Below, one piece after another: positions 11,397 to 49,482 of a stretch of 64,000 nt of DNA. This DNA comes from a virus. The notes under the pieces are model-generated. The model searched no databases and was not told where the DNA came from. It saw only the letters and a list, made by a program, of their open reading frames with translations. How positions within the stretch are numbered: the stretch's first letter is position 1; each line of letters begins with the position of its first letter. The translations under genes and the position numbers were made by a program. Location of the stretch: the IMG/VR virus record IMGVR_UViG_3300046781_000054, positions 1 to 64,000 of that record. One strand, 5' to 3'.

Positions 11397-11897
11397 GTGA
11401 CCGAGCAGCACGAACCACCGACCCACTGCTTTATGTGCAGCCACCCCGTCGAAGCCCACGACCAGGACGCGGACGGCAACCGCCCCTGCCGCTCCCCCGG
11501 CCACCCCAAGGGCGTCCCGTGCGCCGACTGCCGTGCCCTGCTCACCTCCGAGTACCGCAAGCGCCTTCAGGACGAACGGGAACAGCCCGGCTTCGAGAAG
11601 GCATGGCACGCGTTCCTCATCACCCGCGACGACGCTAGTCAGGCGTTCGGGGAGCACGCGCCTGTGTTCTTCACCGATATTCACCAGTCCGCTCTGGCTT
11701 CCGCGTTCATCCACTTCCGGGCAGCGGTACTGAAGCCCCTGGCGGACCTCCACAGCCCCGTACAGCACATGGGGCAGACCTGGTGCCGTGAATGCTCCGT
11801 CCAACGCTCTACGGGCCCGCACAGCGAGGAGTGGGTGGCGTACATCCCGCACCCCTGCCCCACCATCGACGCGCTCACCGAGAGGCTCCGCCCGTGA
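11397..11897 (+). CDS. hypothetical protein with Cys/His clusters
   Basis: CFMC..H, CADC, CREC. Confidence 0.7.
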   Translation: MTEQHEPPTHCFMCSHPVEAHDQDADGNRPCRSPGHPKGVPCADCRALLTSEYRKRLQDEREQPGFEKAWHAFLITRDDASQAFGEHAPVFFTDIHQSALASAFIHFRAAVLKPLADLHSPVQHMGQTWCRECSVQRSTGPHSEEWVAYIPHPCPTIDALTERLRP

Positions 11898-12262
11898 CCG
11901 AACAGCCGTGCCCGTTCTGCGAGATCAACGTAGGGCACCTCCCCGCCACGTTCGTCGACGAGTGGTGCGACGCCTTCGCAATCGTCCCGATCAACCCCGT
12001 TGTCGACGGACACGTCCTCGTGATCCCGAAGACGCACACCCCCGACTTCGGCCACGACCCGGACGTGACCGCGGCCACGATGAAGCGCGCCGCCCAGTTG
12101 GCGCAGAAGTCGGACCAGCCCATGAACCTGATCACCAGTCGCGGTCGGGAGGCGACACAGTCCGTGTTCCATCTCCACGTGCACCTCGTTCCCCGCGCGG
12201 AGAACGACGGGCTGGCCCTGCCCTGGTACAGCGGCAAGCACTCGAAGAGGAGCAGCGCGTGA
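11894..12262 (+). CDS. HIT family hydrolase
   Basis: CPFC...GHVLVIPK...QSVFHLHVHLVPR histidine triad. Confidence 0.92.
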   Translation: MTEQPCPFCEINVGHLPATFVDEWCDAFAIVPINPVVDGHVLVIPKTHTPDFGHDPDVTAATMKRAAQLAQKSDQPMNLITSRGREATQSVFHLHVHLVPRAENDGLALPWYSGKHSKRSSA

Positions 12263-13373: not shown

Positions 13374-14411
13374 TCAGGCGGCCTTCTCCACGTTGAGGTC
13401 CCGTTCCGGCGAGGTAGCCCACCGGAACGTGAGCTGGGCGACCGTCGCCTGCGGAAGGACCCACACCGCGCGGATCTGGTCCAACTCCCGCTGCAGCGTC
13501 CGCTTCGACATCTGCAATCTGCGGGCTACCCCGTCCTGTGTCTCCCCCTCCGACAGGCAGCGCAGGATCGCCCGCTGCCCCTCCGACAACCGTCCGCCGG
13601 CCGCCGCGGCCTGCCCGCCGCGGGTGCGGCGTTCCCCGTGCCACGGGCGGGCACGCCGCCACTCCTGCTCGAACGCGTGCTTGCAGAAGCCGACCATCGC
13701 CCGGTCCGTGATGATCCACGCCGCCCCGTCCGGGGCGTCGGGGATCACGTAGTTGGAGATGACCGCAATCCGTTCATCGACGATGACGACCCGCTCGAAC
13801 GGATCGGCCAGGGTGCGGAAATGGACGCCGCGCGGCGCCATCGTCGACGCCCACTCGCAGGTCACCGCATCATCGCGGACACCGTCCTGGTACAGGGTGC
13901 GATAGGTGACACCCCGCTCGAGGGCCGCCGTGTCGCGGGGGACACCGAGTTCCATCTGGGCGCGGGTGCGGGGCCCGTGCGGGTGCGCGCCGAGCAGTTC
14001 GAACTGCGCGCCCTCCAAAATGCTGCCGATCCGTTCGTTGATCTCCGCCCGGTCCGCGAGGAACTCCGATCCGGTGCCGGCCCGGTGTCGTGAGCCCGCG
14101 AAATGCACATCCAGTTCGCGCACCATCTGCGGCAGGCCCCGCAGCAGTTCCACCTGGCGTTCCAGGTGGGCGAGCGCGTTCTCGGCGATCGGCCACACCG
14201 CCTGCGTCGGCGGCAGCGCCACCGCCGTCGCCCCGTCATCGGTGAGGCCGGCCATCCCCCACGCCCGCAGCCTGGCGAACGCCTCCCCGTCGTCCGGGCC
14301 GGGCTGCCCGCCCGTGGTGAGCCGGCCGAACAGTTCCACCGCTTCCGGCGTCAGCCCCGCCTCAGGGAATGGCTGTCCCTGCACGCCAGCACGCGTAACC
14401 CGCTCTCCCAT
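13374..14411 (-). CDS. TrmB-like sensor plus LuxR-type HTH regulator
   Basis: RGVTYRTLY...ERVVIVDERIAVI (TrmB/PLD-like effector domain); LSEGQRAILRCLSEGETQDGVARRLQMSKRTLQR HTH. Confidence 0.85.
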   Translation of the reverse strand: MGERVTRAGVQGQPFPEAGLTPEAVELFGRLTTGGQPGPDDGEAFARLRAWGMAGLTDDGATAVALPPTQAVWPIAENALAHLERQVELLRGLPQMVRELDVHFAGSRHRAGTGSEFLADRAEINERIGSILEGAQFELLGAHPHGPRTRAQMELGVPRDTAALERGVTYRTLYQDGVRDDAVTCEWASTMAPRGVHFRTLADPFERVVIVDERIAVISNYVIPDAPDGAAWIITDRAMVGFCKHAFEQEWRRARPWHGERRTRGGQAAAAGGRLSEGQRAILRCLSEGETQDGVARRLQMSKRTLQRELDQIRAVWVLPQATVAQLTFRWATSPERDLNVEKAA

Positions 14412-14718
14412 CAGTCCCCCCGCAAAAAAGATCAACACCGGCGGCTCGTACACCTGTTGGCGTATCCGTGCCAGTCACCAAGACGACAACAGTTTCGGTT
14501 GAAACGATGCCGCCACATACGACAAATTCTAGCTACGGGGCCCCTCCCGGCACCCCCGAACCGTCTCCCTACAGGTAACGGACAGGTCCTGGCCTGCCCA
14601 TCCACCTCGTAGGGATCGCAGCAGACGCATTCGGAGCCCAGGACTGCACAACCGCCGGGAGGCCCCACTAGTCCACTCACCTGATCTGTGAGCAGACATC
14701 CCCGGGGAAGGAACCACC

Positions 14719-14982
14719 ATGACCCACAGCGTGCGCCGTATCGGCGCTCTCATCGCTGTCACCGCGGCCGCCCTGGCCGCCCTCGCCGTCACGGCCGCGC
14801 AGACCGGCCCGGGCGCCAGCACCGGCACCGTCACGCACGCTGACTCCGTGTGGCGCGTCGCCGTCCCGGCCCCCGACAACGAGCCCAACCAGGCGGCGCC
14901 GGCCAACGAACCGAACCAGGACGCCCCGGTCGACGGCACCACCGACCAGCCGGATATCACGCCGCAGGACTCGGTCTGGTAG
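14719..14982 (+). CDS. secreted peptide precursor with repeated DSVW motif
   Basis: Sec-type signal peptide; DSVW at aa 42-45 and at C-terminus; NEPNQ twice; GGAAGGA RBS. Confidence 0.8.
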   Translation: MTHSVRRIGALIAVTAAALAALAVTAAQTGPGASTGTVTHADSVWRVAVPAPDNEPNQAAPANEPNQDAPVDGTTDQPDITPQDSVW

Positions 14983-15144
14983 ACGGCCCCCAGCCGGTCT
15001 ACCCGGGGCCCGGACGGCCTGCACGCTACCCGCGGGGGGAAGCACCGTGCAGACCGCCCGGGTCCCCACTCGTTTTCACCCTCCAGAACCCCTCCCCCCA
15101 GCCAGGCCCGGTCCTAGACTGTGGTCTTCAGCAGGGAGGCCGCC

Positions 15145-15699
15145 ATGGACCCAGTCGACGCCCACCCCGAGGCGATCAAGCCGCGGCCCGACTACCCGCC
15201 CAAAACCCCGCCCCCGCCGAAGAAACCCCCGTCCCCGCCGCCACCGGACCCGCCCCGCAGCGAAGCCGAGACACTCCTCGCGGGCCTGCCCGTACCCCAG
15301 CGCGTCCACCAGCGGCCCGGGCTGCCCGTCATGAAAAACCGGCAAGGCGCCTCCTGGACCATGGAGACCGGCGCGTGGATCCCGAAGAAGGCCGCCGCCC
15401 ACATCACCGGCCGACTCGCCGACTGGGGACTCCAAGCACCGAAGAGCATCGACGACGTCGTCCACCTGCTGGTGACCACGGTCATCGCCGACGGGGGGCG
15501 CCGCATCAGCGTCCACCTGTCCGAGCAGGACGGCCGGATCATCGTCCTCGCCCTCAGCCACCAGGACCCGGCCACCCCGCTCCCCGACGAAGTCCTGGCC
15601 GCACTGCGCGGGATGGGCGCGGCGTCCTGCGGCACGGAGACGACGGGCGAGGGCCGGCAGGTGTGGGCACTCCTTGACCTCCAGTCGGCCGCCGCCTGA
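15145..15699 (+). CDS. degenerate HATPase/RsbW-like protein with Pro-rich N-terminus
   Basis: LADWG...DDVVHLLVTTVIADG...CGTETTGEGRQVWALL. Confidence 0.65.
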   Translation: MDPVDAHPEAIKPRPDYPPKTPPPPKKPPSPPPPDPPRSEAETLLAGLPVPQRVHQRPGLPVMKNRQGASWTMETGAWIPKKAAAHITGRLADWGLQAPKSIDDVVHLLVTTVIADGGRRISVHLSEQDGRIIVLALSHQDPATPLPDEVLAALRGMGAASCGTETTGEGRQVWALLDLQSAAA

Positions 15700-15900
15700 C
15701 TAAATCCGGCGGAACCGGCACGCCCGGCCCGGCTGGGCTGACAGAGTGCTTCCCGTCTCCGGTATGACGGCGTGCACGGATGCCCCTGCAACAGTCGTGC
15801 ACGCAGAACCGGTTCGTCTGCCCCGCGGCCTCCCGTGAAGCCCCGGGGCAGACGCACAAGCTGGGGGAACAACCACGCCGGTCAGCGGGATCGTTGAGCC

Positions 15901-16173
15901 ATGCCACTCTGGAAGCGCCGCCCTCGCCCCACGCCCCGTCCCGACCTGACCCGCATCGCGGTCCTCGAGCACGATCTCCTCGGCATCGAACCCGACCCTG
16001 GCACGCCCGCAGCCCACGCCGTCGCCCTGGCCAAGCCCGTCGACCAGGACGCGTGCCCGCACGAGGACGTCATCGACGTCACTCTGCTCGGACAGGCCCG
16101 CTCGACCGGCATGTGCCAGCGCTGCGGCGCCGACATGGTGGAGAGCGACGAAGGCGACTGGGAACGCCCCTGA
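15901..16173 (+). CDS. small Zn-ribbon protein
   Basis: CPHE...CQRCG. Confidence 0.65.
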   Translation: MPLWKRRPRPTPRPDLTRIAVLEHDLLGIEPDPGTPAAHAVALAKPVDQDACPHEDVIDVTLLGQARSTGMCQRCGADMVESDEGDWERP

Positions 16174-16859: not shown

Positions 16860-17489
16860 TCACCCAGTCACATAACGGGGGAACCGGGCATCCACCCTGG
16901 CCGCCAAGGCCGCAGCCGTAGACGGGTCCGGTCGGCCGCCCTCCCCCACCAGCAGAGGCAGCAGCCGGTCTGCGGGTACGACGCCGACCCCCTGCACCTC
17001 GAAGCCATCCCCGGCGACCGGGGCGACGTGCACGACGATCAGCCGCCACACCTGCACCCCGACCGCGTCCGCCACGCACTGCGCCTCCACGTTCAGGCTC
17101 CGCAGCTCCCGGTCCATCGGTGTCCGCCCATGCCACAACCGGCCACCCTGCGCATGGACGGTGGCGCCGCCGCGGGCGTGCCGCATCTTCGAATCGAGCA
17201 GGAACAGACGCCCGCCCGGCGACACCAGCAGGTGATCAGCGTTCGCCGAGTGCAGGCCCGGTATCCGCCGGTCGTGCCCCACCCACCAGCCGGACGGTAA
17301 ACGGGACAGCAGTTCCACTGTCCGCCGCTCACCCTCGCCTCCCGCGCCCCAGGCGGCTGCCTGAGCGTCCGCACGCCGGGTGTGGGCGGTGACACCCATC
17401 CGGGACAGGAGAGGCCGCCACACACCCCTGCGGGCATGCGCACGGATCGCTGCACCCTTCGCTTCCGCCGAGTTCTTGTACGCGGTCAC
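16860..17489 (-). CDS. NERD (nuclease-related domain) protein
   Basis: GGEGERRT...HDRRIPG..ANADHLLVSPGG.LFLLDSK. Confidence 0.88.
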   Translation of the reverse strand: MTAYKNSAEAKGAAIRAHARRGVWRPLLSRMGVTAHTRRADAQAAAWGAGGEGERRTVELLSRLPSGWWVGHDRRIPGLHSANADHLLVSPGGRLFLLDSKMRHARGGATVHAQGGRLWHGRTPMDRELRSLNVEAQCVADAVGVQVWRLIVVHVAPVAGDGFEVQGVGVVPADRLLPLLVGEGGRPDPSTAAALAARVDARFPRYVTG

Positions 17490-24769: not shown

Positions 24770-25936
24770 TCAACTCGCGCGCACGGCATCGGCCGGCGCG
24801 TCCAACTCGGTGTGGCCACAGAAGTGCGTCCGCGAGGCCCGCTTCGCCTCGAGCGTCTTGCCCGGCGCCCTCAACGGGCCCCCGGCATTGCGGTAGTTCC
24901 GGCCGCTCAGAATGTGATTCATCGTGTTCCGCGGAATGCCGTACTTCATGGCGAGCTGCGGCGCCGTGACACCACCCGCCGCGAACAGCTCCCGGATCTC
25001 CACGATCTGCTCGGCCGTGAACGTGCAGCGCGCCGGAGCCTTCAACGGGAACTCCTTACCCTCCCTCTCGTACTGGCGGCGCTGCCGCGACACGTACGAG
25101 GCGGTCGTGCCCTCCTTCAGGTTCCGCTCCCGGTCGATGTCCAGGTACGACATGCCCTTGCCCACGGCCAGCGCGATCGCCTCGACCTTCTGCTCCCTGG
25201 GCAGCCACACATCGCTCCCGGTAACCCACAGCTCCAGGTCGTTACCCGGGTCCTCAGGCTCCTCCTCAGGGGCGTCACCGTCGGCCAGCATCCGCCGGTA
25301 CGAGGCAAGCACGTCGTCCACCGCAGTCCGACCGATCCCCAATCGGGCGGCGATCTCCTTCAACGAAGCGCCCTCGTCCCGCCAACGGTGAATGTCCTCC
25401 GCCCGCGCGAACGCCCGCTCCTTCGCCGTCCCGCTCCGCAGACACGCAGCCGTCGGAGGCTTCCGCACCGGCACGTCCTCGCCGGCCAGACGGGCCGCCA
25501 ACCGCATCGTCGACTCACCCAGGCCCGGCTCGGCCACGTTCGCCACCGACTGGCCCACCGCCTGCGCCTCCAAGGCCAACAGGCGTGCCTCCTCGGCGTC
25601 GTACGGGCCATCGATGCGCTCGTCGACGAACAGCTGCGTGCGCTGCTCCCCTGTCAGGCCGGCACGGACCCCGTCCCGGTTCCACATGGTCTGCCCCTCC
25701 TCCGCCATGCGTGCTCGCAGGCATTCGTCGAGAACGGGGCAGGACAGGCACGTCTTGTGGGCCTTGGCTGTGAGAGCCGGGTTGTCGCCGTCCCACCACT
25801 CCATGGGCCGGTTGAAGCACGCCGAGCGGTCTTCCCAGGAGGTGGTGAGGGATTCGGGGCGGCGGCGCCAGTCGGCGGCGTGGCTGACGGCTTGTGCTAT
25901 TGGGCGGCCAGTTCCGTTAATGGTGTGGGTGGTCAT
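24770..25936 (-). CDS. WhiB-family Fe-S domain fused to HTH domains
   Basis: ACFNR...CLSCPVLDECL...GVRAGLTGEQR; SLKEIAARLGIGRTAV and a second HTH. Confidence 0.85.
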   Translation of the reverse strand: MTTHTINGTGRPIAQAVSHAADWRRRPESLTTSWEDRSACFNRPMEWWDGDNPALTAKAHKTCLSCPVLDECLRARMAEEGQTMWNRDGVRAGLTGEQRTQLFVDERIDGPYDAEEARLLALEAQAVGQSVANVAEPGLGESTMRLAARLAGEDVPVRKPPTAACLRSGTAKERAFARAEDIHRWRDEGASLKEIAARLGIGRTAVDDVLASYRRMLADGDAPEEEPEDPGNDLELWVTGSDVWLPREQKVEAIALAVGKGMSYLDIDRERNLKEGTTASYVSRQRRQYEREGKEFPLKAPARCTFTAEQIVEIRELFAAGGVTAPQLAMKYGIPRNTMNHILSGRNYRNAGGPLRAPGKTLEAKRASRTHFCGHTELDAPADAVRAS

Positions 25937-26394
25937 GTCGTGGCTCCGGGCGGGTTGAGGAGTGCGAGGTGGTCGGGGTGGATGGAGTCGAGGTCGGTGA
26001 TCCACAGGACGAGTTGGGAGCCCTTGACGGGGGTGCCGATGCGGGGGTCGGGGCCGAGGAGGCGTTCACTGTTGTCGTCGGGGAGGATTCCGGCGTCCAC
26101 CAGGCCGTCGACTGCGGCCTTTGCTGACGGGGCCCAGTTGCCGGGGTCGCGGCGTTGGATCTGGGTGTCGGGGTGGATGACGAAGTAGATGTGGGCGCGC
26201 TGGAGGGCGGGGATTTTGCTGTGTCGTGCGGTGGCCCAGGCGGCGTTGCGGATGACTTTGACGAGTTCGGCTTTGCGCCTGAAGTGGAGGCTCTGGTTGG
26301 CGTTGATGAGTTTGGTCTTGGGCGGGAGGGCGAGGCGCCAGGATTGGGGGCGGGTGATGCCGCCGTGGCTGGTCTCTGGGCTGGTCGTGGTCAT
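25933..26394 (-). CDS. RusA-like Holliday junction resolvase
   Basis: RRDPGNWAPSAKAAVDGLVDAGILPDDN. Confidence 0.75.
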   Translation of the reverse strand: MTTTSPETSHGGITRPQSWRLALPPKTKLINANQSLHFRRKAELVKVIRNAAWATARHSKIPALQRAHIYFVIHPDTQIQRRDPGNWAPSAKAAVDGLVDAGILPDDNSERLLGPDPRIGTPVKGSQLVLWITDLDSIHPDHLALLNPPGATT

Positions 26395-32503: not shown

Positions 32504-33604
32504 CTAGGAGACCGTGGTGAGGAGTTCCTTGAGTTGTTCGTCGTTGCGCTCCGCGGCCTGCTTGAACAGGTAGGAGAGCAGCGTGAAGAACTCCGGGTCG
32601 GCAACACGTTCCCGAATCAGCCGTGCCACATACCCGGGCTGATCCCATGGGACGGGCCGAGCGTTCTGCTCCGCGGTCGTCTGCTCCTCAATCTCTGGAG
32701 CAGACGACAGCTCTTGCCCCTCCGCGTCCGGGGCAGGATGCTCGGTCCGCTGCTCGGGAAGCCCCTCCCCTGCTCCGCCAGCCGCTGCGGCGCCCGCGTT
32801 CAAAACGGCGTTTTGAACAGCACCGGCCCCCGCGTCGGGTTCCGACGCAGGCGCGGGGGACTCGGTCTTCAAAACGGCGTTTTGAGAAGCTGCCTTCTTA
32901 CGAGGCTTCGGCGTCTTCGCCGCCGCCTTGATCGCCTCAACCTGGGCGCGCTGCTCCTCAGGCTTCTTGGATGCCAGACCGCGGACCTGACTCGGCTTGA
33001 CCGCGCCGGCCTCCAGCTCGGCCCTCACCTCGTCGTCGAGCTTGAGGAGAGCGAGCCGGTGCGAGACGTACATCTGCGTCTTGCCGATGCGTCGTCCGAC
33101 CTCTTCCTGGCTGCCGTGCTTCTCCACCATCCGCTTCAGGAACTCGGCCTCCTTGATGGGGTCGATCTGCTTGCGGTGGATGTTCTCGATGATGACGGCG
33201 TCGTCGAGCTGGTCGTCTTCGCCGAGCCGGTCCTGGACGCGGATGTCGATGCGGGTCCAGCCGAGCTGGCGGGCGGCTGCCAGGCGGCGGTTGCCGGTAA
33301 CGACGATCCAGTCGGCGCCCTCAACAGCCTTGGCGAGCTCGGGCTTGGACATCACGTAGCGGGCGTGGGAGACGACCGCGAGCGGTTGCAGCTGTCCGAC
33401 CTCGCGCATGGTGTCCATGAGTTCGGCGAACTCAGGGTCCGCGTCGGTGTAGTCGTCGGCCAGACGGGGGTTCTCCGGGTTGCCGGTGATGGTGTGCATG
33501 AGCACGGTGGTCGGCGGTGCGACCGGCTTGTCGTCCGGTGTAGCGGTGGTTGCCTTGTCGTCCTTGCCGAGCAGGCTTGTGAAGCTCTTTTGCCTGTTGG
33601 ACAT
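32504..33604 (-). CDS. parB: ParB partition protein
   Basis: NPENPR...GQLQPL...GNRRLAAA...ENIHRKQI; HTH SQEEVGRRIGKTQMYVSHRL. Confidence 0.93.
   Translation of the reverse strand: MSNRQKSFTSLLGKDDKATTATPDDKPVAPPTTVLMHTITGNPENPRLADDYTDADPEFAELMDTMREVGQLQPLAVVSHARYVMSKPELAKAVEGADWIVVTGNRRLAAARQLGWTRIDIRVQDRLGEDDQLDDAVIIENIHRKQIDPIKEAEFLKRMVEKHGSQEEVGRRIGKTQMYVSHRLALLKLDDEVRAELEAGAVKPSQVRGLASKKPEEQRAQVEAIKAAAKTPKPRKKAASQNAVLKTESPAPASEPDAGAGAVQNAVLNAGAAAAGGAGEGLPEQRTEHPAPDAEGQELSSAPEIEEQTTAEQNARPVPWDQPGYVARLIRERVADPEFFTLLSYLFKQAAERNDEQLKELLTTVS
32798..32818. promoter_or_regulatory. parS-like palindrome 1 (inside parB)
   Basis: GTTCAAAACG-G-CGTTTTGAAC. Confidence 0.75.
32868..32885. promoter_or_regulatory. 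parS-like palindrome 2 (inside parB)
   Basis: TTCAAAACGGCGTTTTGA. Confidence 0.75.
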
Positions 33605-48390: not shown

Positions 48391-49482
48391 TCAGACGAAC
48401 TTGTCGACGAGGTGGTCGTACACCGCGACCGCGGCCGCCGCGTGCGCAGCCTTGCGGGCCCCAGAGTCGCGCCGGCGGATGTATCGCAGCGTGGTCTCGA
48501 TCGCGGCATGATCGGCGTACTCCTGAATCTCCTCCACGGGCACCTTCGCGTCGTGCATGTGGGTCAGCTTGGAGGCGCGCAGCACGTGCGGAGTCAGGTC
48601 GCGGCCGGACAGGACGAGGGCCTGCTTGCCGAGGCGGGTGAGCAGGTAGTCGACATCGTGGCGGGACATCGCCTTGTCGGCGTCGTTGAGGAGGAGCGGG
48701 CCTTCGGTGCGGCCGACGGTGGCGACGTCGATGAGCTGGGCGAGCCGATCCGGGAGCGTCCAGACGCGGCCCTTGCCGCCCTTCCTGCGCAGGTCCAACA
48801 GGCGTACGCCGTCATAGTCCTTGAGCTGGCCGAGGGTGGCGGCGCAGCACTCGGAGACGCGGCCGGCGAGCGTGTAGATGAGGACCGGGACGACGGCTTC
48901 CCGCGCGGTGGCGGCGGCTTCGATGACGCGTTGCAGTTCGGGGACTTCAAGGATGGGTGTGGCGGTGGTTTCGTCGTGGGGGTCGACCTTGGGCCGGTCG
49001 TGCTTGGTGACCGGGGAGACGACGGTGTGGTCCTTGGTCTTCCACTTGGCGTACTCGGACAGTGCGGTGAGGACGGACAGGCGGCGGTTGATGGTGCGCG
49101 GCGCTTTACCTTTGGCTTTCTGGACTTTGGTCCAGGTCTCGATGATGCCGGGGGTGATGGCGCCGACGAAGAAGCGGTCGTGGCCGCCCAACTCCCGTGC
49201 GACGCCTGCCCAGAGGCGGATGTCGTCGGCGTAGGCCTGCTTGCTGGTGGTGGCGGGGACGGCTTCGGAGCCGAGCCATGAGGTGATGAGGAGGAAGGTG
49301 TCGCGGTCGCAGAGTTCAGCGAGGAGTTCGAGGCGCCAGCGGCGTTCGCCGAGGCGTCGGGTGCGGGGGTTGCGGGGTGCAACGGTGCCGAGGATGTCGC
49401 GGAGGTAGTAGAAGGCTTCCTCGGCGGCGCCAGGCTGGGCAAGTTCGGCGCGGGGTCTCGCGGAGAGGTCGTGCTCGGTCAC
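48391..49482 (-). CDS. tyrosine recombinase (Xer/integrase family)
   Basis: GRVSE, KGGK, PHVLR, ADH...TTLRY. Confidence 0.92.
   Translation of the reverse strand: MTEHDLSARPRAELAQPGAAEEAFYYLRDILGTVAPRNPRTRRLGERRWRLELLAELCDRDTFLLITSWLGSEAVPATTSKQAYADDIRLWAGVARELGGHDRFFVGAITPGIIETWTKVQKAKGKAPRTINRRLSVLTALSEYAKWKTKDHTVVSPVTKHDRPKVDPHDETTATPILEVPELQRVIEAAATAREAVVPVLIYTLAGRVSECCAATLGQLKDYDGVRLLDLRRKGGKGRVWTLPDRLAQLIDVATVGRTEGPLLLNDADKAMSRHDVDYLLTRLGKQALVLSGRDLTPHVLRASKLTHMHDAKVPVEEIQEYADHAAIETTLRYIRRRDSGARKAAHAAAAVAVYDHLVDKFV

Follow-up and report, generated by a model that had tools for sequence, protein, structure and literature searches.

A small gene encoding a putatively exported peptide precursor was found head-to-head with a gene encoding a DNA-binding regulator in a 64,000-nucleotide stretch of viral DNA (positions 1 to 64,000 of IMG/VR record IMGVR_UViG_3300046781_000054; this whole stretch is referred to below as the window). 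The precursor carries the motif DSVW twice, once after its signal peptide and once at its very C-terminus, and exported precursors with motifs of the general form D-x-x-W stand beside homologous regulators in other phages, in plasmid-phages and on Streptomyces chromosomes. The two genes are tentatively proposed to form a peptide signalling cassette, in which the adjacent regulator would act as the intracellular receptor of the peptide.

The precursor (87 amino acids (aa); 14719-14982, plus strand) has the composition that a first-pass annotation of the window had described, namely a signal peptide followed by acidic and proline-containing linkers. The signal peptide (approximately aa 1-27) has a basic N-terminus (SVRR) and about 18 hydrophobic residues in a row, ends Ala-rich, and is followed by the first DSVW (aa 42-45; 14842-14853, plus strand), an acidic/Pro spacer rich in Pro, Asp, Asn and Thr, and the second DSVW (aa 84-87; 14968-14979, plus strand), which is the exact C-terminus. 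Both copies lie precisely where they had been annotated, and the D and W columns of the first were invariant in 14 diverse precursors. The codons of the two copies differ (GACTCCGTGTGG versus GACTCGGTCTGG, in the Ser and Val codons), and the annotated preservation of the repeat at the protein level was confirmed here and across the family. By estimate, recurrence of the C-terminal 4-mer in an 87-aa protein would occur by chance with a probability of about 1e-3; it recurs in every orthologue found. The open reading frame (ORF) is a called gene in a public protein collection (P0177), and no family was found for the peptide in Pfam, NCBIfam or PHROGs. Two other classes of product were rejected: a ribosomally synthesised and post-translationally modified peptide, as no modifying enzyme was present among the conserved neighbours and the leader resembles a signal peptide; and a lipoprotein or sortase substrate, as the precursor has no lipobox Cys and no C-terminal anchor. 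The spacer also contains NEPNQ twice (aa 54-58, 14878-14892; aa 63-67, 14905-14919). ANEPNQ-like units occur in several precursors of the DSVW clade (L002, L004, L008, L009 and P0203) and not in other clades; the repeat could be a protease site or a second peptide.

Loci surrounding regulator homologues were fetched from genomes, IMG/VR, metagenomes, phages and plasmids. At all ten loci of close orthologues (60-73% identity), a divergent upstream ORF encodes a signal peptide, (A)DSVW shortly after it and a terminal DSVW(G); one of the ten carries DSVWG twice, and the spacer between the copies is not conserved across them. More distant homologues from phages, plasmid-phages and metagenomes have DTTWG, DTAWG, DTHWG, DSTWG, DTSWG, DTWWG, D(S/T)GWN, DSAWN or DPGWG at the same positions. 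In the Streptomyces phage Chymera (host S. venezuelae), for example, gp30 carries DPGWG twice and is encoded beside an integrase and an immunity repressor. Among regulators that reach 150 bits or more against the profiles built here and have sufficient upstream sequence, all but L067 and L068 have a divergent exported D-x-x-W ORF; these two (from G130 and G383; about 330 bits, inside the phage-type clade) have a larger, mutually homologous gene upstream in place of the peptide ORF. The small exported DxxW ORFs that were looked for beside regulator homologues are near-universal in the phage-type clade, their motif class follows the regulator clade, and the copies within a precursor vary in concert; the test set out in the annotation thus favours it. 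Among the close orthologues, one locus is labelled as coming from outside the Streptomycetaceae: L011, a 2,125-bp contig labelled Leifsonia sp., with two copies of DSVWG. On so tiny a contig, contamination and real transfer cannot be told apart.

A profile of the peptide retrieved 77 small proteins, about 20 of which are encoded on contigs of 85-97 kb. A simple signal-peptide rule was passed by 72 of the 77, and 73 end in D..W plus zero or one residue. Identical 4-mers are present in 74 of the 75 multi-copy members. Thr and Pro abound in the spacers, which are disordered, and copy number varies among precursors of the different cassettes from one to five. When copies were compared in pairs within precursors, 62 of 67 pairs were identical in protein, and 40 of those 62 differed in synonymous codons (e.g. 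AGC in one and TCC in the other at Ser); Ser in the DSVW clade is mostly encoded by AGC or AGT in the first copy and by TCC in the last. Identical protein combined with synonymous codon differences indicates that the copies are old and kept by selection, rather than products of recent duplication. Across all clades, D and W are the sole invariant residues of the motif. The first copy lies at the likely signal-peptidase site or a few residues past it (directly after A-Q-A in Chymera), and we infer that one further cut each would free the first and C-terminal copies.

The regulator (345 aa; 13374-14411, minus strand) was assigned the start codon ATG at 14411 from an alignment of 14 homologues; the frame is open to 14453. 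In the numbering of the resulting 359-aa ORF, its predicted parts are a winged-helix-like N-terminus (36-79), a long helix (82-120), an alpha/beta domain of PLD/TrmB-like type (129-267) and a LuxR/GerE-type helix-turn-helix (HTH; 291-352). Its Pfam matches were all sub-threshold: Regulator_TrmB (PF11495; E 0.017, 14.8 bits against a cut-off of 22.2), GerE (E 0.005) and HTH_23 (E 2.8e-4); PF01978 was not among the listed Pfam matches. In the AlphaFold2 model (predicted local distance difference test score (pLDDT) 68.7), these elements follow one another in that order, and the helix spans 40 residues. Its top Foldseek matches were TrmBL2 (4.5e-7), the PLD protein Nuc (8e-5), TrmB (1.4e-4) and Zucchini, with template modelling (TM) scores for TrmBL2 and TrmB of only 0.3-0.4 over the whole chain. 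The helices of the C-terminal HTH (291-352) are present in the model, and low-TM matches included VqmA, RhlR and LiaR. The annotated head-to-head arrangement was confirmed, and the model and its structural matches are in keeping with the annotated TrmB/PLD-like domain and LuxR-type HTH. No TPR family was found in the regulator with Pfam or NCBIfam at E <= 0.1, no PF03472 autoinducer-binding domain with Pfam, and no family in PHROGs; an NCBIfam 'autoinducer-binding' match covers the HTH region only (aa 273-329; 18 bits against a cut-off of 215.6). The N-terminal third is the fastest-evolving part of the protein and the PLD-like domain the slowest. A co-fold of the regulator with precursor residues 30-87 scored 0.09 (single run, own alignments), a value that speaks neither for nor against an interaction.

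When placed on a maximum-likelihood tree built from 64 regulators, the motif classes require 19 changes, where the minimum is 16 and the mean after shuffling is 41. DSVW is a single clade with a support of 98, to which DSVWG is sister; the D-x-x-W-N types likewise group together in one clade, the DTAWG clade is sister to the DTTWG clade, and DTWWG arose twice. In a search for convergent substitutions, the two independent DTWWG lineages share 14 columns among 109 and 145 differences, which is not clearly above a rough chance estimate. The columns that separate DTTWG from DTAWG regulators are spread across every domain. For regulator pairs matched in HTH distance, divergence in the N-terminal and middle domains is slightly greater when the motifs differ, which is only a hint, the pairs being non-independent.

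The regulator family extends well beyond the phage-type clade, with 2,824 cluster representatives at E <= 1e-3 and 198 at E <= 1e-30. The phage-type clade itself is rare (7 of 401 Streptomycetaceae species genomes at E <= 1e-60), and each of three Streptomyces genomes has seven to eight regulator paralogues, some in tandem. One subfamily of chromosomal paralogues is present in 177 of 201 Streptomycetaceae genomes, at up to ten copies in a genome; of 30 loci in the subfamily, about 20 pair the regulator with a divergent ORF for an exported peptide whose C-terminus reads x-W-(Q/G/D/E), with endings such as DAGWQ (two to five copies), DMGWQ, DNMIWG and DTWGWG. The endings differ among the cassettes of one genome, and the same endings recur across species. 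Such cassette-specific endings are, as read from the predicted precursors, the pattern of orthogonal signal-receptor pairs. Regions of Streptomyces chromosomes (G002:C7:229015-233872 and G003:C40:177329-180098) also carry three to five paralogous regulators in tandem, and in these arrays an exported W-ending ORF lies upstream of some regulators only. In Nocardioides and related metagenome-assembled genomes (L016-L032), a distinct clade of regulators has the same domains but lacks an exported peptide and sits among conserved genes of a housekeeping-like kind. A peptide partner can therefore not be deduced from the fold by itself.

The region between the regulator and the precursor contains an 18-bp palindrome (TTGGCG-N6-TGCCAG; 14457-14474, no strand assigned) located 46-63 nucleotides upstream of the regulator ATG. 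It lies within the best-conserved block of an intergenic alignment of six DSVW-clade loci and within the inverted repeat I1, and no other exact match to its core exists in the window. The palindrome is a plausible operator, predicted from these features. A -10-like hexamer on the regulator strand (TAGAAT; 14527-14532, minus strand) is conserved in the alignment of orthologous loci and is given as a lead only. In the leader of the precursor gene, an inverted repeat (CTCAC-N7-GTGAG; 14676-14692, plus strand) is located 27-43 nucleotides before the ATG, and its columns are partly invariant. A scan of 14300-15800 for the sigma-70 consensus found no full promoter, and no terminator was found there either.

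The proposed cassette would function as follows: the 87-aa precursor would be exported via its N-terminal signal peptide and cut by signal peptidase, and extracellular proteases would free two short DSVW-ending peptides, one near the signal peptide and one C-terminal. The peptide would build up with the density of carrier or infected hyphae, and would be taken up (e.g. via an oligopeptide permease of the BldK/Opp type) and bound by the adjacent cytoplasmic regulator. Binding would alter the hold of the regulator on the palindrome in the divergent promoter region, and would thereby change the expression of the peptide-led unit (the precursor gene, an RsbW-like gene and a 90-aa gene, both described below) and possibly of the regulator too. 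Of the signalling system with an unrelated receptor proposed in the first-pass annotation, the non-RRNPP, non-TPR fold of the receptor and the recurrent pairing of peptide and regulator were upheld, and the reading as a whole is partly supported. A role in lysis/lysogeny or in transfer is pure inference.

Several explanations of the pair were weighed. Spurious ORFs are frequent in high-GC DNA, and the precursor could in principle be a chance open frame with a coincidental repeat; this is exceedingly improbable for an ORF with a G+C content of 0.93 at third codon positions (GC3) that is syntenic and conserved, with synonymous differences, at all orthologous loci. With the 77 family members in protein databases, the orthologue synteny and protein-level conservation refute the chance-frame explanation. 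Signalling with the adjacent regulator as intracellular receptor is the explanation favoured here, at somewhat less than an even chance, because the pattern matches that of Rap-Phr, PlcR-PapR and arbitrium: a dedicated regulator beside a small exported ORF whose short C-terminal motif, often in multiple copies, is the sole part under selection and varies among paralogous cassettes. Several observations weigh against it. Homologues that lack a peptide are found in the Nocardioides clade, at L067 and L068, and among several chromosomal paralogues. The agreement between motif and regulator clade is expected from linkage, because the genes are adjacent, and is no proof of co-evolution. A few motif types (DTTWG and DTAWG) dominate many elements, and the diversity is below that of arbitrium peptides. 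Finally, the central domain is closer to TrmBL2 than to sugar-binding TrmB and is the most conserved part of the regulator, so that a ligand pocket is not evident.

These last features would fit an exported peptide that acts outside the cell or is read by another receptor (such as a membrane sensor or a PDZ-type protein of the envelope), with the regulator only switching on the peptide gene in response to another cue and not binding the peptide. The exact C-terminal placement of the motif would suit any reader of free C-termini, the PLD/TrmBL2-like domain is most conserved without showing a ligand pocket, and regulator homologues without peptides exist. However, each peptide gene has its own divergent regulator paralogue, even where one genome holds several cassettes, which is typical of autoinduction loops, and in the loci examined neither a sensor kinase nor any other receptor gene recurred as a conserved neighbour; this explanation is considered rather unlikely. 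A non-signalling accessory function is less probable still: a disordered exported chain with one to five Trp motifs could bind the host envelope multivalently, for instance in superinfection exclusion, as a protease decoy or in cell-wall attachment. The variable copy number, the disordered Thr/Pro-rich spacers and the accessory nature of the cassette in pZL12-like elements (it was not found in pSLE1) are in keeping with such a binder, but a common Streptomyces target would not predict discrete alleles that are concerted within a precursor and differ between cassettes, nor the strict rule of one copy at the very C-terminus.

The proposed signalling cassette resembles the arbitrium system (AimP-AimR-AimX) of Bacillus SPbeta-like phages in being phage-borne, in placing a pro-peptide with a secretion signal beside a cytoplasmic DNA-binding regulator, and in having a short C-terminal candidate mature peptide whose variants track receptor clades. 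It differs in its non-TPR receptor (winged helix, PLD/TrmB-like domain and LuxR-type HTH), its divergent genes, its two to three motif copies and its Actinomycetota host; no AimX-like output was identified. With Rap-Phr and the other RRNPP(A) systems (PlcR-PapR, NprR-NprX, Rgg-SHP and ComR-ComS), it shares an exported pro-peptide beside an intracellular receptor (a candidate role here), several paralogous cassettes with private peptides per genome, and multiple copies in some precursors. As in those systems, where an adjacent ORF of 10-100 aa with a secretion signal is looked for, the ORF here is 87 aa long with a basic N-region and a hydrophobic core. ComS-type peptides have Asp-Trp-rich C-termini too. 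Tandemly duplicated pheromones have been documented in phage Rap-Phr precursors (PMC11343458). The receptor fold is unrelated to that of RRNPP(A) proteins, and the peptide code is D-x-x-W(-x); having no TPR domain, the cassette is not a member of the RRNPP/arbitrium group, and may work alike. Archaeal TrmB and TrmBL2, the best Foldseek matches of the regulator, have a winged helix, a long dimerising helix and a PLD-like alpha/beta domain like those modelled here. Unlike them, the regulator is bacterial and phage-borne, has an extra C-terminal LuxR-type HTH, lacks the sugar-binding barrel subdomain, and matches in sequence below the Pfam cut-off.

The precursor gene leads a short string of co-directional genes. 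The first after it (15121-15699, plus strand) encodes a protein with a proline-rich N-terminus (PPKTPPPPKKPPSPPPPDPP) and a SpoIIAB/RsbW-like domain (aa 78-186); a gene caller places its start at 15334 (122 aa, P0251). The name 'RsbW-like' given to it in the annotation is right at the level of fold: its AlphaFold2 model (pLDDT 75.6) matched SpoIIAB (3.6e-5) and RsbW (1.2e-3) in Foldseek with TM scores of 0.6-0.73 on the target, and it has the GHKL ATPase fold (0.67-0.73 on the target for RsbW). The Atlas lead for this protein is HATPase_c_2. No Pfam match was found at E <= 0.1, and neither of the ATP-binding motifs sought, E-x-x-x-N (N-box) and D-x-G-x-G (G-box), was seen among the invariant columns (by inspection only). 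Homologues are confined to contigs of the closest relatives and do not lie beside the peptide gene in other clades. The RsbW-like gene is not a conserved part of the module; from its predicted fold, its product could be a variable passenger that acts in an anti-sigma-like manner by binding a host sigma factor. Further downstream, a 90-aa gene (15901-16173, plus strand) encodes a protein with a Cys-containing C-terminus (CPH...C..C) and no Pfam family. Homologues of this gene were located 3' of the peptide gene with phmmer (pSAM1/L061, 1e-38; L052, 3e-35; L034; L063), and it is a conserved downstream neighbour in several plasmid-phages.

The window has a G+C content of about 70% and makes up the opening 64 kb of a virus record of 92,058 bp, 100% complete by CheckV; the runs listed as containing the stretch are all soil-metagenome DNA, with no RNA run among them. 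Its genes include those for an endolysin, a tail fibre and a minor tail protein, together with the plasmid-type proteins ParB and a DciA-like protein. Proteins 68-74% identical to the minor tail protein are encoded by 41 Streptomyces/Kitasatospora plasmids, pSLE1 and pSAM1 among them, with listed sizes of 85-152 kb (mostly 85-94 kb). Because its tail-protein homologues are on pSLE1 and pSAM1, and high synteny between pSLE1 and the plasmid-phage pZL12 has been described (PMC4487206), the element is, on gene content, assigned to the pZL12-like Streptomyces plasmid-phages. Like members of that group, it combines a size of about 85-95 kb, siphovirus-type structural genes and plasmid partition/replication genes, and with pZL12, pSLE1 and pSAM1 it has in common the minor tail protein, ParB, the DciA-like gene, an integrase and the endolysin. 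The cassette is accessory in pZL12-like elements and not universal: pSAM1 shares it (regulator SAM23877_RS36290; peptide RS36295, with DTAWG three times), and no regulator match was found in pSLE1. In S. ambofaciens ATCC 23877, its host strain, pSAM1 is expressed in HT medium (PMC11302927). The cassette region is flanked by a HIT-family hydrolase gene and a NERD-domain nuclease gene (11792-12262 and 16860-17489). Elsewhere in the window lie a tyrosine recombinase gene (48391-49482; Phage_integrase, 65 bits) and the ParB gene (32504-33604). An element with both may integrate and also persist as a plasmid, or may use the recombinase for dimer resolution. A single 411-aa ORF (24770-26005) joins WhiB, an HTH and an HNH/endonuclease-like C-terminus (Pfam matches Whib and HTH_23; PHROG endonuclease, 2e-21).

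In the current view, Streptomyces cells signal to one another through small molecules, gamma-butyrolactones among them. Small-molecule signals are the typical case in Actinomycetota, and the peptide systems described with cytoplasmic receptors, such as those of the RRNPP type, all come from Bacillota (PMC10075063); actinophages do not appear in a 2026 review on communication among phages (PMC13389391). Literature searches found no description of the DxxW motif or of the system. In its broadest form, which is on balance unlikely to hold, the proposal is that DxxW peptides are pheromones read by non-TPR receptors of the TrmB/PLD-like-LuxR type, and would be the first gene-encoded peptide quorum-sensing family of Actinomycetota, with several orthogonal channels on the majority of Streptomyces chromosomes. 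These would have been adopted by temperate phages and pZL12-like plasmid-phages as private channels (DSVW here), either to time plasmid or prophage maintenance against lytic growth or to alter host development via passengers such as the RsbW-like protein. If this is true, there would be a large unrecognised layer of peptide communication in Streptomyces, 'arbitrium-like' decisions of phages would have arisen independently on a different receptor fold, and short synthesisable peptides would provide handles on prophage, plasmid or developmental behaviour in antibiotic-producing strains.

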